Assembly (NCBI RefSeq): GCF_004010195.1 | Contig: NC_057718.1 | Span: forward strand, 8,207,552 to 8,271,551 | Direction of reading: 5' to 3' | Source: Chiloscyllium plagiosum | Lineage: Eukaryota | Length of the DNA: 64,000 nucleotides | Part shown: positions 2,358 through 61,714 of the stretch, piece after piece | How positions within the stretch are numbered: position 1 is the first letter of the stretch | Layout: each line of letters starts with the position of its first letter | Made by a program: the position numbers and the translations under genes | Notes under the pieces: model-generated | What the model saw: the letters and a program-made list of their open reading frames with translations, nothing else | Database searches by the model: none | Told to the model about the DNA's origin: nothing

Positions 2358-2705
2358 CTTTAAGTTATCTCGAGAACGTGATGAAAAAGAAGTTTTGGGA
2401 TTTATATACGAGTGAACCGAAACCTGCAACCTATGCTAAGAGATGAAAGACTTAACAGCAATCTAGGTTTGGCAGCATGTGAGGTTTCTCCAGCACCACT
2501 CTAATCTTGACTATAATCTCCAGCACCTGCAGTCTTCACTTTCGCCTAGCAATCTAGGTTTGTTCAATATATCATTTCAGTTGCATGTCACTGTAATCTT
2601 TTGCTCTAAATTTTGTGTCTTATTGTCTTGTTCCACAGCTACTTGATGAAGAAGCAGTGCTCCCAAATAAAGCTGTTGAACTATAATCTGGTGTTGTGAT
2701 TTATA
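2358..2705 (+). mobile_element. Penelope-like 3' tail (family C) with a nested family A stub at 2472-2547
   Basis: Similar to the PLE 3' region at 22620-22772, then a decayed hammerhead (ttgatgaagaagcagtgctcc) and ctataatctggtgttgtg. The nested stub is flanked by the 15-bp duplication AGCAATCTAGGTTTG (2457-2471, 2548-2562). Confidence 0.75.
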
Positions 2706-5599: not shown

Positions 5600-6240
5600 A
5601 TCACCAATGGCAACATGGATATAAGAGTTGGCGAGACTCAGGAAACAGACATTTGTGGTGCACAGAACAGCGTTTTTCAGATTGGAGGATAGTATACAGC
5701 AAGGTTCCCGTGGTCAGTATTAGGATCACTGCTGTCCTTGAAGCATATTGACAACATAAACCTGGGTGTAAGGGGCACAACTTCAAAATGTGATGGAGCA
5801 TAAAGTTTGGAAGAATTGTGATTAATGACAGATTTCAACAGGAGATGGGCAAGTTGGACAATTTACTGCAGAGGTATATGATGAGACATATTTGATGGAA
5901 AGAACGAACAAAGAGAGGCAATAGAAAAGAAATTGGGGACAGGATCAGAGAGATCTGGGGATATATGCGTACAATGATTTGGGGTATAATAATTTATCAT
6001 TTGGGAATTTGGATTTTAAAGAGGAAGTAAAATAGGTCAGTGGTTAGGATCTGGAACGCACTACTTGCAGGGATGTTGGAGGCAGATTCAATTCCGGCTA
6101 CAAAAAAACGATTGAGTAAGTACCTGAAGAGGACAAATAATTGCAGGGCTATGGGAAAAGGGCCAGTGTGTGGGACAAGCTGAATTCTTGTTGCTGAAAG
6201 TCAGCATGGTCACGATGAACTGAATCACACAGTTATTACA
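5600..6240 (+). mobile_element. Old CR1 LINE RT/3' fragments
   Basis: Remnants such as W..V.S.VP.GSVLG and a CR1 3' UTR; heavily decayed. Confidence 0.6.
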
Positions 6241-6275
6241 GCACAGAGGCATCTTAGTTGGCTTTCTGGTATTTC

Positions 6276-6495
6276 GTTGAAACTTTATTGCTGGAACAGC
6301 ACAGCAGGTCAGGCAGCATCCAGGGAACAGGAGATTCGACGTTTCGGGCACAGGCCCTTCTTCAGGAATTCCTGAAGAAGGGCCTGTGCCCGAAACGTCG
6401 AATCTCCTGTTCCCTGGATGCTGCCTGACCTGCTGTGCTGTTCCAGCAATAAAGTTTCAACTTTGATCTCCAGCATCTGCAGACCTCACTTTCTC
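6276..6495. mobile_element. Palindromic PLE-derived mini-element, family A (young copy)
   Basis: Perfect 186-bp palindrome at 6276-6461 (centre GAATTC) plus a 34-bp one-sided extension. 14-bp TSD CTTTCTGGTATTTC at 6262-6275 and 6496-6509. Confidence 0.92.
6363..6409. ncRNA. Minimal type I hammerhead ribozyme motif (mirror copy on the minus strand at 6328-6374)
   Basis: CTGAAGA (6372-6378), extra A, stem II GGGC-CTGT-GCCC, GAAA, CG, TC with predicted cleavage after C6399. Stem I is CAGGAATTC paired with GAATCTCCTG (one bulge). Stem III is reduced to the palindrome ACGT. Confidence 0.8.
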
Positions 6496-7947
6496 CTTTC
6501 TGGTATTTCACCAAGTGCTGTTCTCGTCTTCCACCTGTAACCCCATATGTTACTGCTTTTTAAATTGCAGTCTAACTGCCTCCTCTATTGGTGGTGTAGC
6601 CAGTTTAAGACAGATTTAAGATAATGGGGGGGGTGAGGAGGGGTGGATGTTGAAAATATTTTTAATTTATTATGTTTTGAAGGATGGAGGTCAGTGCTGA
6701 TGGGATGGTGGAAAAAAATCAGTATTAACTTAAAAAAGAGCACTAGATATACTCGGAGTGCCATGGGTAACTAATGAGATAGGTTGACTAATGGATAGCA
6801 CTTTCGAAGAGCCATCACATGCACAATGGACTGAACAGTCACCTTCTGCTGTGCTCTTGGAAACTATTTAGTAATCACTGGTAGGCCATCAGAATAAGGA
6901 GGAATGGGGGGGGGAGGGGGGGGAGGAGGAGATTACAATGACAGTGCTATTACTGAGATTGATGAAGAGGCTGTTCAGATGAAGTTGAAATGCCCCAATT
7001 CACTGTGCCCTGGAACTGTTACATGAAAAGGGCTGAGTGATTAGAGCAACGAGTAAGAGCCAACATTGAAGGACATTTTAAAATGCTCCTAACTCCCACA
7101 CGATTCCGTTTCAAAGATGGCTTTGAAGACTAGCATTAAATGGATGGGAAATACACAAGTTTTAATTGATTGTACAATACAGGAAAACCTCACATTTGCA
7201 AACCATCTTATTCTCCAAAACATCCAAGCATTCTCACCATTATTTACTCTTTGAAATGTAGCTACTTGTTACATAGCAGAGTTAGCAACCATTCTACTAC
7301 TGATATGCCACAAACCAAAGGGCAACTGAGCTAGTTAATTGAGGAGTGAGGGGGGGCACTTAATTGGGCAGGATGAAGAGTTGCTTGACACAGAAGAATA
7401 GAGGTTTACAACTTGGTAATAATAATAAAAAGAGTATGACAAGCCCTTCCCAGGTTTCACCACAAAGGCATAGTCTTAAAATGAGCACCCATGTTTCACA
7501 CGGCAGAGTGAGTTCAATGCCTTTCTTCTTCCACCTGAATCCCTCAAAGGCATTACATTTTCCAAGACATAGCCTGAACTCCAAACTTTGTGTAATTTAC
7601 TTGCCTTTAATGAAACAGCGCCAAAGACATAATTAAGTAGAAAGAATGACTGGAGCCACTAGAAAATAGAATATTTAGCACGTAGGTCATCCAAGGTAAT
7701 TAAAAGTATCAGATATCTTCACAAAAGCAGTCTAAGTATGCAATCAACTTTTCATTTGTCACACATGCAAAATGATAAAACTGAAACCTTCAATTCGATT
7801 GCAGCCTGCAATTCACTCCCTGATATTCATTATTCTTCCTTCAAAGAACCATGTCCTCTTCCAGATTAATATCTTAGTCACTCCATGTACATTCATATAC
7901 TATCATTGTCTCTGTACCTTTTCAAAACTGAATGACAGTATAAACTA

Positions 7948-8175
7948 AAAGAGAAAATGCTGGAAAATCTCAGCAGGTCTGGCAGCATCTGTAAGGAGAG
8001 AAAAGAGCTGACGTTTCGAGTCTAACTGACCCTTTGTCAAAGCTTTGACAAAGGGTCAGTTAGACTCGAAACGTCAGCTCTTTTCTCTCCTTACAGATGC
8101 TGCCAGACCTGCTGAGATTTTCCAGCATTTTCTCTTTCGGTTTCAGATTCCAGCATCCGCAGTAATTTGCTTTTA
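7948..8175. mobile_element. Palindromic PLE-derived mini-element, family B (young copy)
   Basis: Perfect 190-bp palindrome at 7948-8137 (centre AAGCTT) plus a 38-bp extension. TSD GACAGTATAAACTA (7934-7947) / GACAGTATGAACTA (8176-8189). Confidence 0.92.
8041..8079. ncRNA. Minimal hammerhead motif with U3-A8 core variant (mirror copy on the minus strand)
   Basis: TTGACAA (8045-8051), extra A, stem II GGGTC-AGTTA-GACTC, GAAA, CG, TC (predicted cleavage after 8075). Stem I is AGCT/AGCT. Confidence 0.75.
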
Positions 8176-8669
8176 GACAGTATGAACTATCCTGACAAAG
8201 TTCTGTTTGCTTCTTTGCATTATCACCTTCCCTGCCTGGTAGATACCTTTCAATACTATTTGAAGACGCTGGAGAATTAATTATTTGTCAACATCAGTAA
8301 GCTAACAACCAGCCTCCTTCGACCTCATTGGAAAGAAAGTTCAATGCTTTGATTTGTCAAATATAACAATATCTTATTTAAAATAACTGACTTATTTTCT
8401 TAGAATCTGATAGAACTCAAAGCAAGGACCCCTGTCACTATGTTGGATCACAATGGGAGTTTGGCACACACTTCCTCTCATACTCAAGATTCACTGTTGT
8501 TGTTCAGGTGCTCCCCAAACTGCTGCGAGGGGTCCGAACTACAACCTCACATAACAAGCGCTATTTCAGTATCACTTTGACGTTTATTTGCAGATTCCAT
8601 CCAACTGGTTTTGCTGATCTGAATCACGTTTGTATTGTTGGTTATTCCACAAACCCGCCATTGTAAAAA

Positions 8670-8912
8670 CTCAAAACAAAAACTGAAATTGCTGGAAAAG
8701 CTCAGCAGATCTGGCAGCACCTGTGGAGAGAAATCAGAGTTAACGTTTCGGTTTGAGCAACCCTTCATCAGAAGTGTGTTTTGAGAAAGGGTCACTCAAC
8801 CCTAAACGTTAACTCTGATTTCTCTCCACTGATGCTGCCAGATCTGCTGAGCTTTTCCAGCAATTTCTGTTTTTGTTTCTGATTTATAGCGTCTGCAGTT
8901 CTTTCGGTTTTT
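8670..8912. mobile_element. Palindromic PLE-derived mini-element (family B-related)
   Basis: Imperfect inverted arms of about 100 bp. Minus-strand core CTGATGAAGGGTTGCTCAAACCGAAACGTTA. 10-bp TSD ATTGTAAAAA (8660-8669, 8913-8922). Confidence 0.85.
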
Positions 8913-8922
8913 ATTGTAAAAA

Positions 8923-9944: not shown

Positions 9945-10095
9945 AAACCTCAGCAGGTCTTGGCAGCATCTGTGGAAAGAGAAACAGAGTTATTGTTTCG
10001 AGTCCAAAGACATACTGGATTTGAAACGTTAACTCTGTTTCTGTCTCCACAGATACTACCAGATCTGCTGAGTTTCCCAGCATTCGGTGTTTGTT
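9945..10095. mobile_element. Degraded palindromic PLE-derived mini-element
   Basis: ctcagcaggtcttggcagcatctgtggaaagagaaacagagtt...tttcgag / ttgaaacgttaactctgtttctgtctccacagatactaccagatctgctgag. Confidence 0.75.
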
Positions 10096-14834: not shown

Positions 14835-16020
14835 AAGACCACAAGATACAGGAGAAGAAGTAGGCCATTCAGCCCATCCAGTTTGCTCTGCCATTCCATG
14901 AGATCATGGCTGATCAGATAATTCTCAACTTCAATTTCCTGCCTTTTTCCCAAAACCATTTATTCCTTTACTGATTAAAAATTTGTCAATTTCAGACGTG
15001 AATATACTTAATTATCCCGTCTTAATAACCCTCTGTGTGGAAGAATTCCAGAGATTCACTCCCCTCAGAAGAAGTTCCTCATCTTGTCTGAAAAGGGCAA
15101 CCCCTGACTCTCGGATGTCTTCTAATCCAAATTCTCCCATAGGGGAAACAACCTCTCTGCATCTATCCTGTCAAGCTCCTTGACAATATGCTAAGATTCT
15201 TCAATTAGAATCAATCAATCAAGACAATCAATTAGGTTGTCTTGCATTCTTCTAAATTCCAATCAGTATAGATTTAACCTATTCGACCTCTCATGATCAG
15301 GAAGTCCCTCTATACCGAGGATTAATCTAGTGAAACTTTTCAATGCACTGTCCCAATGCTGCAATATCTTTTTTTAGGTAAGGAAAAGCAAATGGTTCAT
15401 AATATTCTAGGTGTGATCAAACTAGCGCTTTGCATAATTCTAACGAGACTTCCATTCTTTTATCCTCCATTGCCTTTGAAAAATAGGCTAAGATTCCATT
15501 TGCCTTCCCCCATTACCTGCTGAACCAGCATGCTAGCCTTGTGATTTATGTACTAGGACTCCAAAACTCTCGATGCTGCAGCTTTTTCCTTTTAAATAAT
15601 ATTCAGCTCCCCTTTTCTTGTTACCAAAATGCATTACCTCACATTTTCCCATATTATGTTTCATCTGCTAAGTGTTTGCTCACTAGCATAATCTGTTTTA
15701 TTCCTCTGCAGATTGTGTGTGTCATCCTTACCACTTGTCATTCCATCTATTTTTGATATGGAGGGGCCGGTGTTGGACTGGGGTGTATAAAGTTAAAAAT
15801 CACACAACACCAAGTTATAGTCCAACAGGTTTATTTGCAAGCACTAGCTTTCGGAGCGCTGCTCCTTCATCAGGGTACCTGAAGGAGCAGCACTCCGAAA
15901 GCTAGTGCTTCCAATTAAACCTGTTGGACTATAATCTGGTGTTGTGTGATTTTTAACCTTATACATCTATTTTTGTGTTATTGCACTATAGTGCAATCCA
16001 CTCCCTCATCCAAGTCATTA
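14835..16020 (-). mobile_element. CR1 LINE 3' portion, interrupted at 15756-15963
   Basis: Tail agaccacaagatacaggagaagaagtaggccattcagccc, followed by degraded RT C-terminal sequence. Confidence 0.75.
15756..15963. mobile_element. Palindromic PLE-derived mini-element, family C
   Basis: Inverted arms around GGTACC. Intact minus-strand core CTGATGA-A-GGAGC-AGC-GCTCC-GAAA-GC-TA (about 15845-15873). 12-bp TSD CATCTATTTTTG (15744-15755, 15964-15975). Confidence 0.88.
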
Positions 16021-18929: not shown

Positions 18930-21050
18930 TAATCGTGGCCCAAGGACAAACCCTATGTCAATCAACAAGTTACAGGTTGCCAGCCTGAAAACACCACTTT
19001 ATCCTAGCTTGCTGTTTTTTAAAATTATTATTGTCCCAATCTTCTACCCTTGCCAATATGCTACCCCTAACAAAACAGAAGTCGATGGTGTTAAGCAGCT
19101 AAACCTGTAGTACTTTATCAAAAACTTTCTAGAAATCCAAATATATTACATCCATTGGGTCCCCTTTATCCATCCTGCTTGTTGCCTCTTCAAAGAATTC
19201 CCATCAAGTTGCCAGGGAATATGTCATGAAACTGTGCTGTCTTTGATTATGGCCTAACATTTTCCTAATGTCAGATGTTAACAAAACTGGACTGGAGTTA
19301 CTTACTTTTTTGGCTGTTTCCCCTTTTGGACTAAGAGTGTAACTTTGGTATTTTTCTAATCCTCTGGGACTTGTTAAAAAATCTCAGGATTTTTGAAAGA
19401 TTACTACCATCTATTTATAATCTTTAAAACTTACCTCATTTAATTTCAAAAGTCACACGACCAGGTTATAGCCCAACAGATTTATTTAAAATCACAAGCT
19501 TTCGAAAAGCAGGTGCAGTGGAGGGATGTGCACAGGCACAGAATATATAACCTCAATATATACCGCAAGCCCACAGATAACCTCATGATGCTTCACCTCT
19601 CCAGCTTCCACCCGAAACACATTAAAAGAAAATCAAAATATAAATTCTGTGTCTATGCACCTCCCTCTACTTCACCTGCCAAAGGAGCAGTGCTCCAAAA
19701 GCTTGGAACTTTAAATAAATGTGTTGTACTATAACTTGGTGTTGTGTGACTTTTGACTTTGTCCACCCCAATCCAACACCGGCATCTCAACATCCTTGAA
19801 TATCCAAGGAGGCATTCCCAACAGGACAAAGGGAATCATCAGCTTTTAGCCCCATTAGTTTCTCGAGTGATATTTGCTATATTGATTTGCTGCTCCACCT
19901 CAGGCCTTTGATTATTCCATCTTTCTAGAAGGTTATTAGTCTTTAGGGTGGAGAGCACTGTCATCAAGTATTTATTCAACTTGTCTGCCATTTCTTGGTT
20001 TCCTATTATTAATTCCCCAACCTCATTCTCTGAAGGGGCCTACGTCCATTTTGAATTTTCCCTTGTTTTTCATGTATTTAAAAAAGCTCTTGCTGTTCGT
20101 CTTGATATTACTTTCAACTTTATCCTCAAAGTTAATTTTCTTCCTCTTTGTTTTATTTTTAGTCATCTCTTGTTAGTTTTTCAAACTTGCCAAGTCCTCT
20201 GGCTTACCACTAATATTTGTCACATTGTTCTTTTTCTTTCCATGTTATATTACCCAGTTAACCCTGGTTGGCTTACTCCATTCTCACTATGATATATCCT
20301 TGTTGTGAGTCACAATTTATTTCTTAAATGTGTTGTTCTTCAACAGTTTTGCTGCTAAACCCCTTTCCTAGTCCGCTCTGGCAAGTTCTGCCCTCATTCT
20401 TTTGTAATTGCCCTCAGTTTCAGCACAGTTGTTTCTGTCCCAAGTTTCTCACTGTCAAAATGAATGCTAAATTCTACCATGTTATAGTCACGATTTTCTT
20501 GGGGATCTTTTACTCTGACATTATTTATCAAACCTGACTCATTACATATTACCAGATCCAAAATAGCCTGATTCCTGGTTGTCCTTGGAAACTGTATTAA
20601 ATGTATCCTATGAATTCTTCCTTGTGGTGACTTTGCCAATGTACATGAAAATTAATGATTAACATATTACCTTTTTTTACATGCCCTAATGATCTCCTGA
20701 TTTCTTCTATCCATAATATATCTATGGTTGGGGCGGGGGAGGAGATGAAAAATGACTCTGACAAGTGTCTTCTTTCCCTTGTTGTTTCTTACCTCCACCC
20801 AAAAGGATTCTACACCTTCCAACCCAAGATCATTTCTTTCTACTGTACTTATTCTATTATGTACCAACACAACTATCCCACTCCCTTTTTCTTCCTGACT
20901 GCATTTGGAAAAGCCATATACCCTTGAATATTTAGTCCCTAGCTTTGATTTCATTTTAACTTTGTTCCTGTAATGCCCTAAAAGCATGCCCATTAACCTC
21001 TATTTGTACTGTTAATTCATTTACATGGTCTCAAATACCCTATGTGCATT
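18930..21050 (-). mobile_element. Degraded CR1 LINE (APE to RT), interrupted at 19444-19795
   Basis: ORF track gives GIVVLV...ESFWVEVRNNKGKKTL and QAILDLVICNE...DYNMVEF (APE motifs). Confidence 0.8.
19444..19795. mobile_element. Family C inverted-repeat element with a PLE RT-thumb fragment in its loop
   Basis: Inverted family C arms enclose about 19550-19627, which translates to LNIYRKPTDNLMMLHLSSFHPKHIK (PLE YRKPT...S.HP motif). Confidence 0.8.
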
Positions 21051-27020: not shown

Positions 27021-27067
27021 AGGTTCTACGACCCTCCCTTAACAAATAAGTGTCTCTCCTTGTGTGG

Positions 27068-27254
27068 GCTGAAAATGTGTTGCTGGAAAAGCGCAGCAGG
27101 TCAGGCAGCATCCAAGGAACAGGAGAATCGACGTTTCGGGCATAAGCCCTTCTTCAGGAATTCTCCTGTTCCTTGGATGCTGCCTGACCTGCTGCGCTTT
27201 TCCAGCAACACATTTTCAGCTCTGATCTCCAGCATCTGCAGTCTTCACTTTCTC
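27068..27254. mobile_element. Palindromic mini-element, family A (right-arm hammerhead deleted)
   Basis: Arms gctgaaaatgtgttgctgg... / ...ccagcaacacattttcagc. Minus-strand core CTGAAGAAGGGCTTATGCCCGAAACGTC intact. 14-bp TSD CTCTCCTTGTGTGG (27054-27067, 27255-27268). Confidence 0.88.
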
Positions 27255-28250
27255 CTCTCCTTGTGTGGATATAGTTTGCCTCTCAGAATCTTGTCCCGAA
27301 ACAGCCAAAGAACAGTTAATCTTCAAGCTCCCACAGACGTGACTGCATTCACCTAAGGTAAGAGAATTATCTTGCAACAGATATTCCTGCACAGTTGGAA
27401 ACGAATAGGGTTTATTTCTTTTGCTGGAATGGCAAAACCAGGGCAGGAGAAAGAGACTTATGTACGATTTTCATAAAATATACTTTAACTTGGGGAGGGG
27501 GGCGCGGTGTGGGCACAGGCAATGAAGAAATGCTGAAAAAACTTGAACCGAGTCCTTTATTCATAGCCTATGAGTGAAAGCATTCTCTATTTACACACAC
27601 TGAATAGTGAAATCCCATTGTACCACTATAGATATTGGAGAAGACACAGGGATAACCTATCATTGAAAAGCTTAGTGTCAATGCCACCCATAACTGCACA
27701 ATGGGTATAACTTTAAATTAAGAAGCGGTATTGCTGCTCCTGCAGCTGAGAAGGGTATTTGAAAATCCTTCGGCATGCATGTAAAAGAGGAGGATGGACA
27801 TCTGCCCTGAAGACTGATACTCCTCTCAGCATTGATACTACCAAATAAATTCAGCTCAATTGGCCGCAGGAGCCCGCTGTTTAAAAAAGAATGCTTGCCA
27901 CTTCCATGAAATGGAAACACTTCAGAAATGATTTTTTTGAAACTTGACAGTGTGACATAGTTACACAAACCATTCTTTCTCTATTGACTGCCTCCAAGTT
28001 TTCATGGCTTTGCTATGTGATTGCATTCTTGATTAGATATACTGGAAATTCAGCTTCAGGCTATTGAGCTATTGGTTGCTGCTGTCAAATTGACATAATT
28101 CTTCATTAAATGTTCTGAATGAATGAAACATATTATATTGTGCTGTTGCTAGTACCCAGGCCACATGTATAGCATCAGATCATTACATCTTGTTGTGCAC
28201 AGTATCAATTATCTTATTGCTGGAAAACTTGGAAAAGATTCTGATCTTAC

Positions 28251-28334: not shown

Positions 28335-29269
28335 CTGCAAAGAGAGGAAAGGATAATTATTGGAAAAAGAACGCATGAAATCCAGAGTAACAGCAGAAAG
28401 CAGGGATTCCACTGTGAGGAGTAGCCTAGTGGAAACTGCTCCCTCAAAAGTCAGTTTATTCTGAATTGGATCCTTACTACTGTTTAAATGGGATTGAAAT
28501 CTCCATTTTAATTAAAATGTACCATTAGTGCAATTTTAATGTCGTAATTTAGTCAGTTCATGTTACCAATTTCTATGGAAGTCACACTACTTTTAAAATG
28601 AAATCCCAGTAAAAGTGATTGCTGGTTGCATATAACATGAATTCCAAACTGATCAGATTTCCTGAAATCTGATATTACACCCATAATTTAAAAAAAAACA
28701 CAGAAGATCTTCATTGTCATTGTTTAGCACCTCCAAGATAATTCCCCATTCTACAAATACAGGAGACTCATTAACATTTCTGTTCTACATTATTAGATCT
28801 CAAAGCAAGATGCAATATGGAGAAATGCAATAAGACATATGTTCTTTACTCATAACCTTAGTAAGTGTGCCAAAAATTAGGAAAATCTGTGACTTTCAGT
28901 TCTCTTATGTGTTTCATTTCTCCTTTAAAATAAGACAAGTAAAGTTTGATTCATTCCTCGGAATCTCGGAATGTCTAGGCCATGAAACTTGCTCTCACAA
29001 CCACAAATGCGGTGTCTCCAACTGCAATTTGACGCAACATAACAACTTACGCATTAATCCAAGGACTTTTTTTAAAATCAGGAAGAGGTTCATGTTCATT
29101 TGCTCAGACTTTTGCTTTTCCCCAATTGTTTCTCCACTTCCAATCCAAAATGATCTGCTAACGGCAATTAATCTGGATCCAGCAATATTGCCAAAAACAG
29201 TCTGGCTTCCTTTTTCGTTGGGAGACTAGCAGCTGAGTGAGCGAGGGAACATGGCTGGATTATATACCT

Positions 29270-29461
29270 AGGCGAAACTGAGGACTGCAGATGCTGGAGG
29301 TTAAAGTCAAGATTAGAGTGGTGCTGGAAAAGCACAGTAGGTCAGGCAGCATCCGAAGAGCAGGAAAATCCTGATGAAGGGCTCCTACCCGAAATATCGA
29401 CTTTCTTGGTCCTCGGATGCTACCTGACCAGCTGTGCTTTTCCAGCATCACTCTGGTCTTG
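29270..29461. mobile_element. Palindromic mini-element, family A variant (opposite orientation)
   Basis: Inverted arms with one plus-strand core CTGATGAAGGGCTCCTACCCGAAATATC. About 9-bp TSD TATATACCT. Confidence 0.8.
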
Positions 29462-29784
29462 TTATATATACCTGACAACCTCATGAACCATTGAGTCATG
29501 AAACCAGGGACCGAGAGTGTATAACTTGTGGTCAGTTTGCAAAGTTAGCTTGTAAACAGTCACGCACAACCAGAAGCTTTACATCCTGTTTTCATCCTGA
29601 GTTAGTTAATAAGAGCTGAGTGAGTGAGTTGAAGGAACGCAGAGTTAAACAAACATACTGGGCCTGGGCACCGTTCTTGATCGCTACATAGTGGAAAATA
29701 CCTACCTTCGTGAGCGGAGTAAAGACAGGTTTGATCTCAGTTGCTTTACGTAAGCTTCAAAAGGCAGCCCACACTACTATCTAA

Positions 29785-37700: not shown

Positions 37701-39346
37701 GTATTTCACAAAATGCATGCTTTCTAGTTATTGATAGTTTATTGTTAACAGTGGATCCCTGGAAATATTTAGTGCATTGCTTTTAGTACCCTCATCAACA
37801 TTAACCCTCATTAATTCTAAAGCAGGGCACTCAAAACTGCAATTATTGTTCTAAGTACATTTTGGCCTGTGAGTTGTATAGTTTTGAGTTTAGCATTTCA
37901 ATTGTGTATTTACAATGCCTATTTACAAGTCATTGGATCCCTTGAGCTTCTTTTTAAAAAATCAGCTTTATTGACTTATTTACTTAACACCATGAAAAAT
38001 GACAACTGTGAACCCCCAGGCTCTCGTTTCTCCTCCACTGCTTTTACAGTTTTATCATCTTATGGTGCATTCTTCTCCTTTTCTTTCCTAATCATTATTA
38101 TCAGCTCCCACTGTTCCAACGTAAATTCCATCTTGTATCTGCCGAGTCCAATATTTGATTTGTCTCAGTCAGAAGCATCTTTGCAATGGGGAATTGAGTT
38201 TTTCTACAGTGAGTTATGACAATCTCGAATGAACTATCTGAAAGGTTGAGAGAGCTACAGGCAGAGGCAGGGGCAGGGAGACAGACTGAGAAGCACCTTT
38301 CGTGGAAAGGCTGTTAGAGCTCTCAGAGCTACTTTGGCTACGCAGCCTGTTAGTTCCAGAAGACACGTAACAGAAGGAAACCAAGAGAAATGGGGATTCA
38401 GAATATGCAATTAAACTTTGTTGTTCAAAACCAAAGTATTCAACCAGGAAAATAAATTACAAAACTCAATCTGAAACTTGTTATGTGACCCTGGGGATCT
38501 TAAAGACAGCACTATAAATCAAAACCTGTCCTTTTCATTAGTTCCCAAATCCCTCCTCCCCTGAAAGCTGGTTTTCTGGGAACAGAATGTTTTTCATTTT
38601 ATGCGTATAAGCATCAAACTCTCCCAAGCTCCAAATGTGCTTGGTAGCTGGAGAGGGCTCGATGCAGAAATAAAGCTCTCCGTACACTGGCCAACTAATA
38701 AACCCAACTGAAGCAAAACACACCTCCTATCAGAGCTAATGTATCACTTCAACAGTGTATACATAGGAATGTGGCTTGAATACATGAACTCTGCATCAGA
38801 AGCAACGGCCTTTCAATCAGGATTAACATTTAGGACACCTAAGGCAAGAGTTTTAGATGCAGAATGGGGGCCAAAATGAGATGCAGGGAGTGGAACTTCT
38901 TGCTACATGCTGGCATGCCAGTTTGCTGGGACTAATTTCCCTAATTTGGTTTTGGGTGCCTGAGCTACACTTCAGCAAGTGGTTCTTGCCAGTCAGCGAG
39001 CAGGCTCTATGGTCAGCTGAAAGATAGTACCCTCCCAACAAATGGTATGGAGGGGGGAGGGGATTTAATCTGAAAGGGACTCTCTCTACCATTCATTATG
39101 AGTATCAAACCATATTTACAGCCCAGTGTCATGGTTTTGACCCACTGAGGAAATCCTGTCGCGCGTATTTCAGCACAGGTAAATCTACTCTACTCCCTCC
39201 CAAACTTAGGTATACTCTATTGCAACAAGTCTGAGCAAAGCAATTTCAAAATAAAATAATCAAGGAATAGAGAAAACTTTCAACTCATTAGAGGTGTTCT
39301 ACAGTCCATTTCTCTAATGTGGATGAACAATAGGGTTGACACACTT

Positions 39347-39552
39347 AATAAAAGCAAATTACTGCGGATGCTGGAATCTGAAACCAAAAGAGGAAATGCT
39401 GGAAAATCTCAGCAGGTCTGGCAGCATCTGTAAGGAGAGAAAAGAGCTGATGTTTCGAGTCTAACTGACCCTTTGTCAAAGCTTTGACAAAGGGTCAGTT
39501 AGACTTGAAACGTGAGCTCTTTTCTCTCCTCACAGATGCTGCCAGATCTGCT
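39347..39552. mobile_element. Palindromic mini-element, family B (opposite orientation to the 7948 copy)
   Basis: Same centre gtcaaagctttgac and TTGACAA core on both arms. 14-bp TSD GGGTTGACACACTT (39333-39346, 39553-39566). Confidence 0.9.
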
Positions 39553-40174
39553 GGGTTGACACACTTGTTCACTTGTTTGTCCAGATAGATGGGCTGATTT
39601 GTGAAATATATTCCTGATTGTCTCAATGTTAACTACCATTCAGTTTTTAAATATTGATCTCATTCTTTCAACTTGCCATATGAACCAATCTAAAGTATGT
39701 CTTGCATTGGCCATTTGAAGATTCAATTATGACAACCTTAAGTAGCAACTTATCTTTTAGCAGTGCCCCAATATTTTGAGATCGCATTATAATAGGTGGG
39801 AGTAATATTGCAGTTATAAAGTTACCAAGAGAATGCTTCAGATTATATGTTAACTGTTCAACAAAGGAAAAGGAGAACTGTCCTTTCTGAGCCAAGTTGG
39901 GGGTTGCAGTCATTCTAATGTCCAAAACTCTGATATTTTCAGATTACGGCTTTTTTTTTGTGTTTAACATGTTGGTAAAATCAAGTCAAAGCAAGTAGAG
40001 ATACAGCGCAATGCTGACTCATCATCACCTTCACAGCACAATGCCTTCTCTATTCTGTCACTTTTCACTGTATCAAGTGGCTTGCAACTAATAACCAGAT
40101 AAAATCACTTGCATAAACCAGTCACCCACAAACTCCATATCACGCCCACTACACAGGATTGCTTTGTGTTTCAC

Positions 40175-43778: not shown

Positions 43779-46700
43779 AGAGTCACAAAGTCATACAGCA
43801 TGGAAAAAGACCCTTCAGCCCAAACGGTCCATGCTGACCATAATTCCAAACTAGTCTCATCTGCTTGCGTTTGGCACATACACTTTCCAAACCTTTCCTG
43901 TTCATATACTTATCCAAATGTCTTTCAAACATTGTAATTTGACCTGCATTCACCACTTCCTTTGGAAATTCATTCCACACACAAACACACTGTGTAGACA
44001 GTTGCCCCTTAAATCTCTCTTCCCTTAAAAATATGCCACCTAGTCTTGAAATCCCTCACCCCAGGGAAAAGACACCTATCATATAACTTACCTACACACC
44101 TCATGACTTTTTAAACCTCTACAAGGTTAACCACAAGACATAGGAGCAGAAATTAGGCCACTCAGACAATCAAGTCTGCTCAATCATGTCTGATAAGTTT
44201 CTCAACCCCATTCTCCCGCTTTCTCCCTGTAACCCTTGATCCCTTTGACAATTAAGAACCTATCTTAAATATACTCAATGATCTGGCCTCCAACAGCCTT
44301 CTGTGGCAACAAATTCCACAGATTCACCACTCTCTGGCTGAAGAGGTTTCTCCTCATCTCTGTTCTAAAAGGTCTTCCCTTTACTCTAAGGTTGTGCCCT
44401 CTGATCCTAGTCTCTCCTATCAGTGGAAACAACTTTCCAATGTCCACACTGTCCAGGTCATTCACTATTCTGTATGTTTCAGTTAGATGCCCCCCTCATC
44501 CTTCTAAACTCCATCGAATATAAACCTGAAGTCCTCAAACGCTCCTGATATGTTAAGCCTTTCCGCCCTGGGACCATTCTCGTGGACCTTCTCTGAACAC
44601 TCCCTAGTGTCACCTTTCCTGAGGTATAGGACCAAACACTGCGCACAATACTCCAGATGTGGTCTAACCAGAGCCTTATAGAGCCATAGAAGTACATCCC
44701 TGCTTTTACATTCAAGACCTCCCAAAATAAATGCCATCATTGCATTTGCCTTCCTAACTATTGACTCAACCTGCAAGTTTACCTTGTGAGAATCCTGGAC
44801 AAGAACTCCCAAGTCTCTTTACACTTCAGACTTCTGAATTTGTTCATTTAGAAATTAGTCCATACCTCTATTCTTCAAACTGCATGACCTCACACTTTTC
44901 CACGTTGTACTCCATCTGCCACTTCACTGCCCACGCTCCTAAACTGTCCAAATCCTTCTGCAGCCTCCCCGCCTCCTCAATTCTACCTGTCCCCCTACCT
45001 ATCTTTGTATCATCTGCAAACTTAGCCAGAATACCCTCAAGTTCCTTCATCTAGATTATTAATGCATAAAGTAAAAAGTTGTGGTCCCAACACTGAGCCT
45101 TACGGAACACTGCATGTCACCGGCTGCCACCCTTTTATCCTTAATCTCTGCTTTCTGCCATGGGCTGTTACCTTATGCAGTAGCCTCCTGTACAGTATCG
45201 TGTCAAAGGCCTTTTTGAAGTCCAGCTAGATAACATCCATTGGCCCTCCTTGGTCTAGCCTGCTTGTTACTTAGAGTCATTGAGATGTACAGCACAGAAA
45301 CAGACCCTTCGGTCAAGCTTGTCCATACTGACCAGATATTTTGGAAGAGTGTTACAGGTTGCGGGGGGACTTGGATAAACTGCAGAATAGAGCTGAGAAG
45401 TGGCAAATGGAGTTCAATGCAACTAAATGTGAGGTGCTGCACTTTGGGAAGAATAACAGGAAGGCAGAGTACTGGGTCAGTAGAAAGATTCTTGGTAGTA
45501 TGGACGTGCAGAGGGATCTTGGAGTGCATGTACATAGATCCCTGAAAGTTGCCACCCAGGTTGATAGTGCTGATAAGAAGGCATACCGTGTGTTAGGTTT
45601 CATTGGTAGAAGGATTGAGCTCTGGAGCCGCAATATCATGTTGCAACTATACCAGGCACACTTGGAATATTGCGTACAGTTCTGGTCGCCATATTTCGGG
45701 AAAGATGTGAAGCATCGGAAAAGGTTTGGAGGAGATTTACCAGGATGTTGCCTGGTCTGGAGGGAAGGTCTTACGAGGAACGGCTGAGAGATTTGCGTCT
45801 GTTCTCATTGGAAAGCAGAAGGCTAAGAGGGGATTTGATAGAGACATACAAGATGATCAGAGGATTAGATAGGGGAGACAGTGACAGTCTTTTTCCTAGG
45901 ATGATGACAGCAGCTTGTACGAGGGGCCATAACTACAAATTGAGGGGTGATAGATTTAAGACAGATGTCAGAGACAGGTTCTTTACTCAGAGTGGTAAGG
46001 GCATGGAATGCCCTACCTGCTAATGTAGTTAACTCAGCCACATTAGGGAGATTTAATCAATCCTTGGATAAGCACATGGATGTTGATGGGATAGTGTAGG
46101 GGGACGAGCTGAGAATAGTTCACAGGTCGGTGCAACATCGAGGGTGCTGTATTAGATTAGATTACATTACAGTGTAGAAACAGGCCCTTCGGCCCAACAA
46201 GTCCACACCGACCCGCCGAAGCGAAACCCACCCATACCCCTACATTTACCCCTTACCTAACACTACGGGCAATTTAGCATCGCCAATTCACCTGACCNNN
46301 NNNNNNNNNNNNNNNNNNNNNNNNNNNNNNNNNNNNNNNNNNNNNNNNNNNNNNNNNNNNNNNNNNNNNNNNNNNNNNNNNNNNNNNNNNNNNNNNNNNN
46401 NNNNNNNNNNNNNNNNNNNNNNNNNNNNNNNNNNNNNNNNNNNNNNNNNNNNNNNNNNNNNNNNNNNNNNNNNNNNNNNNNNNNNNNNNNNNNNNNNNNN
46501 NNNNNNNNNNNNNNNNNNNNNNNNNNNNNNNNNNNNNNNNNNNNNNNNNNNNNNNNNNNNNNNNNNNNNNNNNNNNNNNNNNNNNNNNNNNNNNNNNNNN
46601 NNNNNNNNNNNNNNNNNNNNNNNNNNNNNNNNNNNNNNNNNNNNNNNNNNNNNNNNNNNNNNNNNNNNNNNNNNNNNNNNNNNNNNNNNNNNNNNNNNNN

Positions 46701-49320
46701 NNNNNNNNNNNNNNNNNNNNNNNNNNNNNNNNNNNNNNNNNNNNNNNNNNNNNNNNNNNNNNNNNNNNNNNNNNNNNNNNNNNNNNNNNNNNNNNNNNNN
46801 NNNNNNNNNNNNNNNNNNNNNNNNNNNNNNNNNNNNNNNNNNNNNNNNNNNNNNNNNNNNNNNNNNNNNNNNNNNNNNNNNNNNNNTCTCTTTTATATCT
46901 TTCCCCTCTCACCCTGAACCTATGCCCTCTAGTTCTGGACTCCCCGATCCTAGGGAAAAGACTTTGTCTATTTATCCTATCCATGCCCCTCATAATTTTG
47001 TAAACCTCTATAAGGTCACCCCTCAGCCTCTGACACTCCAGGGAAGATAGCCAGCCCCAGCCTATTCAGCCTCTCCCTATAGCTCAAACCCTGGCAACAT
47101 CCTTGTAAATCTTTTCTGAACCCTTTCAAGTTTCACAACATCTTCCGATAGGAAGGAGACCAGAATTACATGCAATATTCCAAAAGTGGCCTAACCAATG
47201 TCCTGTATATCCGCAACATGACCTCCCAACAACTCTTATCTCCTCAAAGAAATTCCAGCAGATTTGTCAGGCATGACCTCCCCTTGATGAAACCATGCTG
47301 ACTTTGCCCTGTTTTACCATACACTTACAAGTATTCAGAAATCTCATCCTTCATAATGGATTCCAGGATCTTACCCACAATCAAAGTGAGGCTAATCAGT
47401 CTATAGCTTTTAGTGTTTTTCCCTACTCCCTTTTCAAACAGGGGTGTCATATTAAGTGATTTTCCAGTCCTCTGGGACCTTCCCTGATTCTAGTGATTCC
47501 TGATGGATCCTGATAACGCCTCCACTCTTCTTCAACTATCTCCCTTAGAACTCTGGGGTGTAGTCTATTTGGTCCAGGTGATTTAACAATCTTTAGGCCC
47601 TTCAGTTTTTCTAGCACCTTCTCCTTGGTGGTGGCCACATATTCTGCTTTATCCCCTCACTCTTTTTAATTTTTGGGATATTACGTGTGTCTTCCACCAT
47701 GAATATTGACTCAAAGTAATTATTCAGTTCCTCATCCAGTTCCTTGTTCACCACTATTATCTCTCCATCATCATTTTCCAGTGGCCCAATGCCCACTTTT
47801 GCCTCTCTTTTGCCCTTTATATTGCACTAAACAAATTCTTACAGTTTTCCTTTGTATTATTGGCTAGCTTACCCTCTTATTTAATCTTCTCCCTCTTTTT
47901 TGTTGCCTCTGTTGGTCTTTGCAAGCTTTCTAATCCTCTGGTTTCCCACTGCCCTTCGCCGTATTATGCATTTTCTCTTTTGCTTTTATGCTATCCCTGA
48001 CTTCTGTAGTCAGCCATTATTGCCTCGACCTTCCTGTACCATGCTTCTTTTTTGTCAGGATGAATCACTGCTGTGTCTCCTGAATTACTCCCAGAAACTC
48101 CTGCCATTGCTGTTCTACTGTATTTCCTGCCAGGCTCCTCTCCCAGTCAATTCTATACGGCTCCTCCATCATGCCTCTGTAGTTGCCTTTATTCAGCTGT
48201 AATACTGTTACCTCTGATTCTATCTTCTCCCTCTCAAATTGCAGAAGTAAATTCAATCATATTATGATCACTGCCTCCTAAGGATTCCTTCACCTTAAGG
48301 TCCCTTACTGAATCTGCTTCATTGCACAGCACTAAATCCAGTATTGTCTGTTCCCCAGTGGGTTCCATCACAAGCTGCTCCAAAAAGCCATCTCGTGGAC
48401 ATTCAACAAATTCCTTTTCTTGCAATTCACTACCAACTTGATTTTCCCAGTCCACCTGCATATTGAAATCCCCCATGATCACTGTAACTTTGCCTTTCCT
48501 ACACATCTTTTCTATCTCGTGTGTCTTGCGCCACAGCTCCAGACTACTATTTGGAGGCCTTTACATAACTCCAGCTACGGTTTAATTTACCTTTGCGGTT
48601 CATCAATTCTACCCACACAGATCCTACAGCATCTGACCCTACTTCGTTTCTTACTATTGATTTAATTTCAAGGTTACCCATCAACCTTCTACGTGCTCGT
48701 GAAAGAAGTCTCAGCCTGTCCAGCCTCTCCTTATAACTCAGACCATCTATTCCCAGCAACATCCTGGCAAATCTCTTTTGAACCCTCTCCTGTTTAATAA
48801 CAGCGTTTCTATTACAGGGTGAGCAGAAGTGGGCACAGTACACCAGAAGAGACCTCACTAAAGTCCTGTACAACCTCATCATGACGCCCCAACCCCTCTA
48901 CTCAAAGGTCTGAGCAATGAAGGCAAGCGTGCTGAACGATTTTTTAACCACCTTGTTTGCATGTGACGCAAACTTCAAACAATTATGTATCTGAAACCCT
49001 AGGTCTGTATATTTTACAACATTACTCTAGGCCAGACTTTTAACTGTATAAATCCTGACCTTGGGCTCATGCCCGAAACGTCGATTCTCCTGTTCCTTGG
49101 ATGTTGCCTGACCTGCTGCGCTTTTCCAGCAACACATTTTCAGCTCTGATCTCCAGCATCTGCAGTCCTCACCTTCTCCTTTTTTTTCAAAACCAAAATG
49201 CAATACCTCACATTTATCCAAATTAAACTCAATCTGTCATTTGTCAGCCCATTGACCCAATTGATCAATACCTTTTTGTAGTCTTAGTTATCTTAGATAA
49301 CCTCCTTCACTGTCCAGTAT
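43779..49320. mobile_element. Nested CR1/SINE cluster
   Basis: HER1 tail (-) 43779-44130; long CR1 (-) 44130-45270 continuing at 47230-48670 (RT to APE); HER1 tail (-) about 45272-45340; CR1 (+) 45340-46150; HE1 tail (-) 46152-46297; HER1 (-) 46887-47230; CR1 (-) 48670-49320 containing a family A half-element at about 49062-49180. Confidence 0.85.
46298..46886. other. Assembly gap (589 N)
   Basis: Run of N, flanked by an HE1 SINE and a HER1 fragment. Confidence 0.99.
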
Positions 49321-60316: not shown

Positions 60317-60478
60317 AGATGTGGAGGTGCTGGTGTTGGACTGGGATAGACAAAGTTAAAAATCACACAACACCAGGTTATAGTCCAGCAGGGTTAATTG
60401 AAAGTATTAGCTTTCAGAGCGCTGCTCCTTCATCGGGTAGCTAGACTAGCTGGTGTTGTGGTTTTTAATTTTGTACAT
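60317..60478. mobile_element. Palindromic mini-element, family C (right arm mostly deleted)
   Basis: ggtgttggactggg...aaagttaaaaatcacacaacacc...ctttcagagcgctgctccttcatc / ggtgttgtggtttttaattttgt. Confidence 0.8.
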
Positions 60479-61714
60479 TTAGAAATAGCATTTTATGTAT
60501 CTCTCATAAGTGCTTCATATACTGTTCAATGTCTCACCAGCAAATACAATACCACTGGCAAATCTATCAGCCATTTTATGCAGAAAAACCTTTTGTAAAT
60601 GAAGGATTTTGACAGCAGTTAATTCTTTCATATCCAGATTAACTTAGAGAGCAATGCTGGCCAGTAAACTAACAGACCTCCCTACTGCTCTTTTAGTAAT
60701 GCTGTGGGATCATTAACAACTATCTCAACCAATGAAACAAGTAGATGAGGCATCTTAGCTTAAAGACAACACTTCTGAAAACCGAGGATATCCTCACTGC
60801 AAAGTCAGGTAAATATTGCCTGCTTAATTCCTGAAGTGGAACTCAAGGCCACAACTTTCTGCTCTCATGGTGAGATTATTTATAAATGAGCTAAGATAAT
60901 ACAAAATTAATCAAGGGAATTGGACTCCAATCTAATCTAAATTATAACTACTTTGGATGCAAAATCATAACAATCTTTCCTCTTCCAGGGCCAAAAATCC
61001 TCACTTTCCTAAGTATTAAAAAGCACATGAGCCTAAACACGATAAAACTTAAAAGTCCAAACAAACACCTTAGTCTAAATCCAGAAAATCATATCTGCTA
61101 TTCACTTGATACCCATGGTCAGGACAGACAATTAACATTCATCTGCATCTAACCAGTCGCAAAAATCCCAAACGGTGTGAATATCACTTGCTTTCAGACA
61201 TGCAACTGAAAAACATTAGGATGAAAGGATTTGATTTGTGATAATGTACAATGTAGTTCTTTTGTCTTCATTTAACACAAAGTGGCTCTTTGTTACTTAA
61301 TATTTCCACCACTCGTCATGAAGGCTTCAGTGCAGGGGGGATATTTACTTGAAAATAGCCCAGCAAACAACCAGTTGCATCGAGACCATTTGCCAACTCT
61401 GCCTTTCTAAAAATGGTTAAATTAAGTAATGCTGCTAGAATAAAGAAAGATGAGCTGTTCAAGCAAGTATTGAGATTTATTAGTTTTCAAAGATTTAAAT
61501 CAGTTAAGCAAGTCTTTGGGCTTTTACAATACGTTTGTGTATAAATATACATCAATATGTTCACCTTGTGGCCTTATGTACTTGAATAATTCTGTTTTTG
61601 CATGCAGAGATGTGCAGGTTGTCCCAGGGTTAATTCAATGAGAAAACTTAGAAAATCTATCACATTTACCTGTGCAGTACAAAAAAAAAGTTATATTTAT
61701 AAAGCACCTTCCAT

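Follow-up and report, generated by a model that had tools for sequence, protein, structure and literature searches.

The 64,000-nt stretch of Chiloscyllium plagiosum contig NC_057718.1 analysed here (assembly GCF_004010195.1, forward-strand positions 8,207,552 to 8,271,551; hereafter the window) contains at 6262-6509 a palindromic insertion with a hammerhead ribozyme motif in either arm. The palindrome very probably consists of two stubs, each derived from the tail end of a Penelope-like element (PLE), that were inserted head to head in a single event. Head-to-head insertion is a known habit of PLEs that is extremely common in this genome, and the insertion described here is an extreme and very abundant form of it; every insertion creates its palindrome anew, and the palindrome does not replicate as such. 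A first-pass annotation of the sequence had offered two overall readings, a distinct class of ribozyme-bearing retroelement or extremely short inverted PLE insertions, and these are partly supported: the second is borne out, as the arms correspond to the 3′ terminus of an element encoding a reverse transcriptase (RT) and a GIY-YIG endonuclease (EN), and the one-sided tail and the inversion are published PLE signatures.

The perfect palindrome spans 6276-6461, with arms at 6276-6368 and 6369-6461 of 93 nt each that are 100% complementary and separated by a spacer of 0 nt. A 34-nt extension (6462-6495, + strand) lies between the right arm and the right flanking repeat and has no counterpart on the left side; it corresponds to the stretch between the two classes of element 3′ end described below and to the published PLE ‘tail’. 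The insertion is bordered by two 14-nt direct repeats, CTTTCTGGTATTTC, at 6262-6275 and 6496-6509, which are 100% identical and represent the target-site duplication; the 186-bp palindrome with one-sided extension and 14-bp duplication claimed in the first-pass annotation is therefore present exactly as described. Positions within the element are given on a ruler on which position 1 is the A of ATTCCTGAAGA, and for which two real copies, L026 and L011, serve as references in place of a consensus. On this ruler the left arm (6276-6369, − strand) is a PLE 3′-terminal unit without tail that aligns at 100% with positions 1-94 of the long copy L026; the right arm (6368-6461, + strand) covers the same positions 1-94 according to arm pairing and alignment to L026, and the central AT at 6368-6369 is common to both arms.

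Both arms carry the core and helices I and II of a minimal type I hammerhead of the PLE kind, for which cleavage is predicted. The motif of the right arm (6368-6403, + strand) consists of AUUC (6368-6371), the CUGAAGA box (6372-6378), a bulged A (6379), GGGC-CUGU-GCCC (6380-6391), GAAA (6392-6395), CG-UC (6396-6399) and GAAU (6400-6403); the left-arm motif (6334-6369, − strand) is its perfect reverse complement. Helix I is formed by the 4 bp of AUUC/GAAU and helix II by GGGC/GCCC, both of which are returned as the minimum-energy fold of positions 1-60; the loop-less helix III would be the self-complementary ACGU, and cleavage is predicted between 6399 and 6400, after ruler position 32. The earlier proposal of a full minimal type I hammerhead in each arm thus stands for the core and helices I and II; its suggestion that stem I forms across the centre does not, as helix I lies inside a single arm except for the shared central A/T and the partner arm is not needed. 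The back-to-back arrangement of the ribozymes is a by-product of inverting a unit that starts with a ribozyme and is not a design feature. Three sequence families of such elements occur in the window (A, to which the palindrome belongs, B and C), and judged by eye across these, helices I and II covary: helix II differs in sequence while its pairing is kept (GGGC/GCCC in family A, GGGUC/GACUC in B, GGAGC/GCUCC in C), and helix I is AUUC/GAAU in family A and AGCU/AGCU in family B. The core reads CUGAAGA, GAAA, GUC in family A and CUGAUGA, GAAA, CUA in family C; that of family B (window positions 8043-8075 and 39449-39481) features UUGACAA, the published U3-A8 covariant. Since a cofolding prediction for a pair of arm RNAs failed to yield an intermolecular helix III as expected, the dimer model of ribozyme action is taken here from the literature.

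Ribozyme model searches did not recover these motifs: an Rfam scan of the whole window at gathering score gave 0 matches, hammerhead models included. At E-values up to 10 over 6200-6560 there were 10 matches, none to a hammerhead model; 8 of the 10 are microRNA (miRNA)-precursor models placed on the perfect hairpin, all far below their gathering scores, and the remaining 2, an internal ribosome entry site model and a long non-coding RNA model, are weak. The miss is attributed to the build of minimal PLE hammerheads, which have no helix III hairpin, because the models expect that hairpin. The perfect hairpin at 6339-6398 reaches 47.9 bits on Rfam mir-4662 (gathering score 97) and scores more weakly on three more miRNA models; such palindromes could pass mistakenly for miRNA precursors.

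The assignment of each arm as the last ~95-130 nt, the extreme 3′ end, of an endonuclease-bearing PLE is drawn from sequence comparison with longer copies in the assembly. The order in longer copies is RT, end of the GIY-YIG open reading frame (ORF), a 3′ untranslated region (3′UTR) of ~160 nt, hammerhead, arm and tail. Long copies thus feature ~160 nt of untranslated sequence upstream of the arm, preceded by an ORF ending in LIFRLGTLQPQGMN; in L026 the ~160 nt before the arm are likewise preceded by an open frame, here ending in EERLIFRLGTLQPQGMN. A search with the L026 ORF-end peptide gave 75,009 first-look candidates, and all 150 of the 150 scored among them match. The Pfam GIY-YIG model (cut-off 22.6 bits) is matched at 22.7 bits in copy L062, with sub-threshold scores of 18.8 and 22.0 in two more copies, and a piece of RVT_1 (47 bits) lies on the same strand of L062, ~1.1 kb upstream of the GIY-YIG ORF. 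A 399-aa frame from copy L046 shows 47% identity (E 9e-123) to residues 429-800 of an 806-aa RVT_1 + GIY-YIG protein; this frame matched 72 longer proteins of ~700-1,130 aa, most of which have RVT_1 and some also GIY-YIG according to precomputed domain lists. Three long copies of ~2.7 kb are unpaired and carry duplications of 14, 11 and 12 bp, each being 5′-truncated at a different point.

Abundance was estimated from exact word counts on both strands of the assembly (3.56 Gb, 101,977 contigs), for which reversed control words gave 0 matches each. A 26-mer across the ribozyme cut site of family A has 63,349 exact matches, the first 24 nt of the arm 39,914, and a 25-mer at arm positions 58-82 as many as 125,527; the arm words of families B and C are found 1,979 and 3,914 times, respectively. 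Of the 39,914 arms complete to position 1, at least 16,127 are preceded by YCTC as in the long form.

The boundaries of the element were determined in samples of 93-100 arms and 54 pairs, mostly from the first ~4 Mb of contig C1 together with 20 chosen sites that share the centre of the palindrome. In the 93-arm set (93 of 100 listed places, anchored at positions 58-82) 52 arms have their 3′ end at 88-108 and 41 at 125-131, with 0 between; in a second sample of 100 arms anchored at 36-59, the ends are distributed as 43 at 92-99, 8 at 101-109, 43 at 127-131 and 6 earlier. The 3′ ends therefore form two classes ~35 nt apart, and the 34-nt extension of the palindrome is the PLE ‘tail’ between them. 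The 5′ ends of the 93 arms are also restricted: 52 fall at −9 to +9, 19 of these at positions 1 or 2, a further 19 fall at 11-35 and 0 at 36-57, and 22 arms run on upstream to −52 or beyond. This pile-up lies 4 nt ahead of the CUGAAGA box, and its origin by chance is excluded (P = 4e-16 and 6e-28). The 46 unpaired copies divide into 24 with starts at −5 to +8, 18 long ones and 4 that begin within 22-35; 9 of the 24 have a target duplication of 6-14 nt directly at the 5′ boundary, and the upstream flanks of all 24 are mutually unrelated. The pile-up, the abutting duplications and the unrelated flanks together indicate that the 5′ boundary is a true element end, and the same boundary is found in families B and C, 2-4 nt ahead of the core boxes. 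The discrete 5′ end of the short arm, in place of a random truncation point, is what survives of the idea of a distinct class of element.

Possible traces of ribozyme cleavage and of a promoter were looked for at the 5′ ends. Ends at the cut site (33-35) account for 4 of the 19 ends within 11-35 (P = 0.19 over 11-35, P = 0.03 over 11-57), which among these 19 ends is no clear excess; the result agrees with that for the Anolis enzyme, for which uncleaved RNA is the main template in vitro (Frangieh et al. 2024). In long copies the boundary sequence is CTC/ATTCC (boundary at the slash), with an AT-rich TTTTAT at −32 to −27. This arrangement would fit the consensus of an initiator with a weak TATA-like element. 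An extra G at the 5′ end, as would be left by an RNA cap, was not seen in unpaired copies with clear target duplications. The ribozyme segment GAAACGTCG (6392-6400, present in all family A arms) lies 25-33 nt past the first base of the arm and matches 5 of 8 positions of RGACGTGY, the downstream promoter element (DPE) of D. virilis Penelope, which may be coincidence.

The centres of inverted pairs vary between copies. Of the places matching the cut-site word, the first 100 listed include 17 inverted pairs, whose start-to-start spacings are 38, 48, 48, 53, 53, 53, 56, 56, 62, 63, 63, 65, 71, 85, 211, 281 and 530 nt, against 64 nt for the palindrome at 6276-6461; the six inverted pairs among the first 100 places listed for the family B arm word have spacings of 34, 34, 37, 39, 84 and 150 nt, against 34 nt for the window pair at 7942. 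Base-by-base resolution of 34 pairs gave 15 junctions with 1-3 nt of microhomology, 1 blunt junction, 13 with 1-6 nt of filler, 1 with a 21-nt filler and 4 that are complex or long-armed. Of 27 short pairs, 24 have one or both arms extending to positions 1-4, while the start of the other arm ranges from 1 to 100. The 28-nt centre of 6276-6461 is present in exactly this form at 721 sites in the assembly, compared to the 39,914 arms reaching position 1; of 20 such sites fetched, 11 belong to subfamily A2 and 9 to A1, the outer ends vary, and the 12 target duplications detected are all different. The ends of the unit are self-complementary (AT in family A, AGCT in family B), and recurring centres are what would be expected of two full-length cDNAs with such ends.

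Two further regularities concern the tail and the source of the arms. Exactly one tail is present in 50 of 54 pairs (32 of 34 resolved pairs and 18 of 20 same-centre copies); given that 20 of 44 unpaired copies are tailed, independent arms would be expected to give ~50% one-tailed pairs (P = 1e-11). Subfamily typing of 32 pairs returned 31 concordant, 0 discordant and 1 ambiguous, and the same-centre copies are concordant in 20 of 20; with 22% of arms overall belonging to A1, discordance would be expected in 34%, compared to 0 of 51 typed pairs (P = 6e-10). In L179 (G000:C1:31161651-31161978) both arms are missing the same 8 nt right after the predicted cut site (GAATCTCC), and were therefore copied from one variant template. 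The concordance and this shared deletion indicate that the two arms of a pair derive from one source. A model in which the tail-less arm is the leading and more complete one was rejected, as either arm can be longer. Two pairs of unusual build were also noted: L189 (G000:C1:64096066-64096393) has a tailed full arm and an 18-nt inverted 5′ end followed by the target duplication, and looks like second-strand priming at an arbitrary internal point; in L088 (G000:C1:2142945-2143207) the two inverted arms extend beyond position 1, by 66 and 78 nt, into the 3′UTR, which shows that head-to-head insertion also occurs with units longer than the short one.

The identity of the arms, the variable centres, the two 3′ classes, the 5′ pile-up, the one-tail rule and the common source of the arms are direct observations; from these we infer a single RNA molecule, an order of events and a determinant of the RNA 5′ end. 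The template would be a short RNA running from 4 nt before the hammerhead core to the reverse-transcription start region of the element. The PLE enzyme would nick both target strands in a staggered cut, and each 3′-OH would prime DNA synthesis on that RNA; initiation at the inner start (~95) would leave no tail and initiation at the outer start (~130) the 34-nt tail. In the general case one cDNA would reach the RNA 5′ end and then continue on the other nascent cDNA at whatever extent this had attained, a scheme that would fix at least one arm at position 1 and leave the partner variable. For 6276-6461 both cDNAs are envisaged to reach the RNA 5′ end, upon which their 3′ ends would pair through the terminal AT and be extended on each other, yielding a perfect palindrome between 14-bp target duplications. 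Tentatively, and with less than even chances, it may be further proposed that the 95/130-nt unit with its leading hammerhead exists as a template RNA, the start of which is set by a promoter initiator at the first base of helix I, and that one molecule is copied from both nicked strands by the halves of a dimeric PLE enzyme, with one start site each; the promoter-defined template would in that case be a capped RNA starting at the A of AUUCCUGAAGA. If this were true, the tens of thousands of near-perfect hairpin insertions would be a natural record of a two-headed reaction, and may also supply large amounts of double-stranded RNA that acts against the element.

A number of points weigh against the head-to-head PLE interpretation or parts thereof. 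A full-length copy with an upstream terminal repeat was not found, the 3 long copies and 8 copies of the 5′ region all being 5′-truncated; the central ORF stretches of the longer copies are runs of N (L162-L164, L038, L042, L053, L063, L065), and the long ‘open frames’ listed for them include unknown residues. The surroundings of the RVT_1 piece in L062 are only ~70% like another copy, and the piece may belong to a different PLE copy; because of this doubt the linkage of RT to EN is mainly by homology to full-length proteins. Sampling by exact anchor words under-represents old copies. Of the 54 pairs one is two-tailed (L175) and up to three are tail-less, and a few tail-less arms end at the odd positions 18, 59 and 72. 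A strict leading/trailing order of two enzymes is unsupported, as either arm may be the more complete, and a single RNA molecule, two RNAs of one locus and an arm copied off the first cDNA are indistinguishable. Transcript data are likewise not in favor: single-cell polyA reads under the same species label (run X20) include 541 reads of the element from both strands, the depth of which tracks genomic copy number, with no pile-up of molecule starts or ends in this library, a type poorly suited to short RNA. The read-end check suggested in the first-pass annotation hence gave no place where many molecules begin or end. Of the X20 reads 88% continue into unrelated sequence, and a second raw-read run, X21, has 0 reads; copies are present within longer transcripts, and X20 is indecisive on a short RNA starting at position 1.

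The first-pass annotation preferred a replicating palindrome, in which the whole ~220-bp inverted unit is transcribed and retrotransposed by PLE enzymes in trans, and pointed to the identical centres of the family B pairs at 7942 and 39347; the 721 sites with the centre of 6276-6461, and the same 34-nt spacing in 2 of 6 family B pairs, could be read likewise. This explanation is already largely refuted and is considered very unlikely. Most centres differ, and inversion points that vary between copies are what the annotation itself had named as speaking against its proposal; copies with the same centre span both subfamilies and differ in detected duplications and outer ends, while recurring centres are expected anyway from full-length cDNAs with self-complementary ends. 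The two family B pairs have a tail-less outer end at ~101 and 72, respectively, with different duplications and no arm asymmetry in common, and are independent events. RNA spanning the palindrome is predicted to form a 91-bp perfect hairpin (−199.8 kcal/mol), which would exclude the ribozyme fold and bury both ribozymes and the start region of one arm; moreover, unpaired copies with the same ends are as common as pairs (46 unpaired arms versus 34 pairs). A foldback or miniature inverted-repeat DNA transposon, or an assembly artefact of palindromic reads, would account for the terminal inverted symmetry and the target duplications, but has a negligible probability given duplications that vary from 6 to 17 bp, an asymmetric tail at one end, unpaired half-units sharing the same ends, arms continuous with an RT/GIY-YIG element and thousands of independently flanked sites. 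A further possibility is that full-length PLE RNA was simply truncated at random from its 5′ end, with no defined short RNA involved, and that alignment or multi-lineage 3′UTRs produced an artefactual pile-up at position 1. This is suggested by the known heavy 5′ truncation of PLE insertions and by the long forms, whose ends are scattered from −13 to beyond −163; it is nevertheless improbable, as 52 of 93 ends lie in a 19-nt window, the abutting duplications and 24 unrelated flanks mark the boundary independently, partner arms meet at the same point and the boundary recurs in families B and C.

Two explanations retain somewhat more weight. The second arm could be copied from the first cDNA, by foldback or strand switching on DNA, with the tail-less end as a stop or joining point; arms of a pair that are always of one subfamily, the shared deletion of L179 and the 18-nt inverted 5′ end of L189 would all fit. 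It is still judged unlikely, since the tail-less outer ends cluster at 87-109 in 26 of 34 pairs, as do those of 24 of 46 unpaired copies, which fits a start site; a loop-free perfect palindrome is impossible by simple intrastrand snap-back, and in vitro the Anolis enzyme uses RNA to extend both strands. Alternatively, the ~95/130-nt arm might be a unit similar to a short interspersed element (SINE), transcribed from its own copies by an internal promoter, composed of an initiator at position 1 with downstream elements, and mobilised in trans, with palindromes as a frequent form. The 5′ end that is discrete at −2 to +4, the very high copy number and the boundary CTC/ATTCC of long copies, which would fit an initiator with A as +1 and has TTTTAT at −32 to −27, speak for this possibility. 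In the same direction, D. virilis Penelope is described as having an internal, TATA-less promoter of initiator and DPE, similar to that of long interspersed elements (Schostak et al. 2008). The possibility is doubtful without being remote: in subfamily A2 no diagnostic sequence difference was found between 57 short and 23 long copies, both A1 and A2 have long forms, X20 reads do not pile up at position 1, and short copies do not have the AT-rich −30 element, so that if this were needed they could not propagate. Possible long masters are also plentiful, at least 16,127 of 39,914 arms continuing upstream. It may therefore be that longer masters gave rise to the stubs as dead ends, which would then form no lineage of their own, and the distinct class of element put forward in the first-pass annotation is unsupported on this evidence. 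Two further candidates were rejected. That short copies originated at a start region close to the 5′ terminus of the full-length RNA, within an upstream pseudo-long terminal repeat (pseudo-LTR), is unsupported, as sequences flanking the arms downstream differ between copies, and the 3 long copies and 8 copies of the 5′ region are truncated before any such repeat. A non-LTR retrozyme is not consistent with window copies that are inverted or single, with no head-to-tail hammerhead tandems.

PLEs are described as having an inverted, 5′-truncated copy beside the element and a 30-40-bp tail that is often at one end only, and their tandem and inverted insertions are ascribed to ‘still undefined features’ of the transposition cycle (Craig et al. 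2021). With EN-bearing PLEs (Penelope/Poseidon, Neptune and Naiad) the elements of the window share the head-to-head inversion, a one-sided tail of 34-35 nt, duplications of variable length, a hammerhead in the terminal region and, in long copies, an upstream ORF of RT with C-terminal GIY-YIG; they differ in the extreme stubs of 95-130 nt per arm, in their enormous numbers, in a discrete 5′ end in place of random truncation and in having no pseudo-LTR partial tandem at the window loci. The closest mechanistic parallel is the Anolis Poseidon element PAc, whose enzyme nicks and extends both strands and uses two adjacent internal RT start sites, the tail being the stretch between them (Frangieh et al. 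2024). Both systems have two 3′ classes ~35 nt apart with the tail between, use of both strands and a hammerhead shortly upstream of the start sites, with no sign of a ribozyme-cleaved main template. Between the ribozyme cut site and the first start lie 63 nt here and ~85-92 nt in PAc; furthermore, the PAc ribozyme overlaps the ORF start, whereas here it follows the ORF and 3′UTR in every copy seen. The rules of one tail per pair and of a single source are derived here from genomic copies and are not stated in the available main text of Frangieh et al. 2024.

The ribozymes share with PLE minimal hammerheads (Cervera and de la Pena 2014) the type I layout, a helix I of 4-5 bp, the unpaired base 5′ of helix II and a palindromic-tetranucleotide helix III, implying dimer action, as well as the U3-A8 core variant of family B; its core UUGACAA is the covariation described in that work for the Cercyon elements of Schistosoma. 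PLE minimal hammerheads are reported there to have low activity in vitro and to be mostly solitary, which is ascribed to truncated PLEs, with opposite-strand ‘dual’ motifs in Schistosoma. Helix II is 4-5 bp here compared to 7-8 bp in Schistosoma, and the first base of helix I coincides here with the terminus of the inserted unit. Animal non-LTR retrozymes, which are arranged in head-to-tail tandems, are thought to pass via circular RNA and are proposed to be non-autonomous PLE derivatives (Li, Clavereau and Pollet, bioRxiv 2026), also feature short hammerhead sequences related to PLE termini, with dispersed ‘monomers’ being common; unlike these, the copies described here are inverted pairs or singles with duplications and tails, and no tandem array of the unit was seen in the window. 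The arrangement can also be set beside L1 twin priming. In that process, too, a single RNA is primed a second time from the other target strand, and microhomology joins the two cDNAs. What becomes inverted there is another stretch of the RNA, closer to its 5′ end, so that no palindrome arises, whereas here both primings usually take place at dedicated start sites in the same 3′ region.

PLE transposition is still poorly understood, the first in vitro system having been established only in 2024 (Frangieh et al. 2024), and this genome offers a very large natural sample of minimal PLE insertion products that is a natural complement to that work. The three rules found in it, namely two 3′ ends ~35 nt apart, one tail per pair, and one source for both arms, of which at least one usually extends to a fixed 5′ end, constrain models of transposition and lend themselves to testing in the in vitro system now available. 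In annotating this 3.56-Gb genome, the short hammerhead stubs and perfect hairpins, which number more than 100,000, are to be regarded as PLE debris and not as miRNA precursors, ribozyme genes or a new class of element.

The remaining copies in the window include all those of families A, B and C listed in the first-pass annotation, whose claim of recurrence in three families with separate target-site duplications is thereby corroborated; 8 of the 9 inverted repeats in the window (at least 30 nt, within 400 nt) are elements of these families. Target duplications range from 8 to 15 bp in the window and from 6 to 17 bp elsewhere. In family A, the copy at 27055-27268 (element 27068-27255) consists of a tail-less arm from position 1 and a tailed arm from ~34 within a 13-bp duplication, TCTCCTTGTGTGG; a diverged copy at 29261-29473 (element 29270-29464) has its tail on the left, with a tailed arm from ~33, a tail-less arm from ~3 and a 9-bp duplication. 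A single unpaired arm with tail aligns to the family A ruler at 49053-49180 (+ strand), and a very short family A-like insertion at 2457-2562 (+ strand) comprises the last ~76 nt with tail, flanked by 15-bp duplications. Family B is represented by the inverted pair at 7934-8183 (element 7942-8175; tail on the right, 8-bp duplication, U3-A8 core UUGACAA) and that at 39334-39566 (element 39347-39553), which has the same centre, a tail-less arm ending at ~72 and a 13-bp duplication. An older family B-like inverted pair at 8660-8922 (element 8670-8912) features a 5-nt central spacer and a 10-bp duplication; it has CUGAUGA in one arm and UUGAGAA in the other. In a further inverted pair at 9945-10084 both arms are truncated within helix II and separated by a 9-nt spacer. 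Family C comprises the inverted pair at 15744-15975 (element 15756-15963; tail on the left, 12-bp duplication, CUGAUGA, GGAGC/GCUCC, GAAAGCUA), a copy at 60317-60480 in which a full, tailed arm is combined with a heavily truncated one, and a family C-like inverted pair with long arms at 19454-19746, in which 195 nt lie between the repeats and the hammerhead box has decayed. The sole N in the window form a run of 589 at 46298-46886, representing either a gap or withheld sequence.

Pseudo-LTR or partial tandem organisation is absent at the window loci; elsewhere, one partial tandem of the 3′UTR-hammerhead region was seen in L062 (G000:C1:19735600-19741600, − strand), where the sequence restarts ~110 nt back in the 3′UTR, 7 nt past the predicted cut site, and from there reads once more into a hammerhead, arm and tail. 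The PLE 5′ regions (L165-L172) contain imperfect repeats of ~30 nt rich in CCCCGCCCC, resembling GC boxes; all 8 of the 8 copies are truncated at different points and 0 are preceded by an arm. A tandem array of the PLE 5′ region with a 213-bp period and at least 14 units is found in L173 (G000:C1:136150100-136150900; array to ~136152990), one end of which joins 3′UTR, hammerhead and arm directly; its repeat units are without hammerhead, the motif being present only in the 3′UTR-arm stretch at the end of the array, and the locus looks like an internally deleted derivative.

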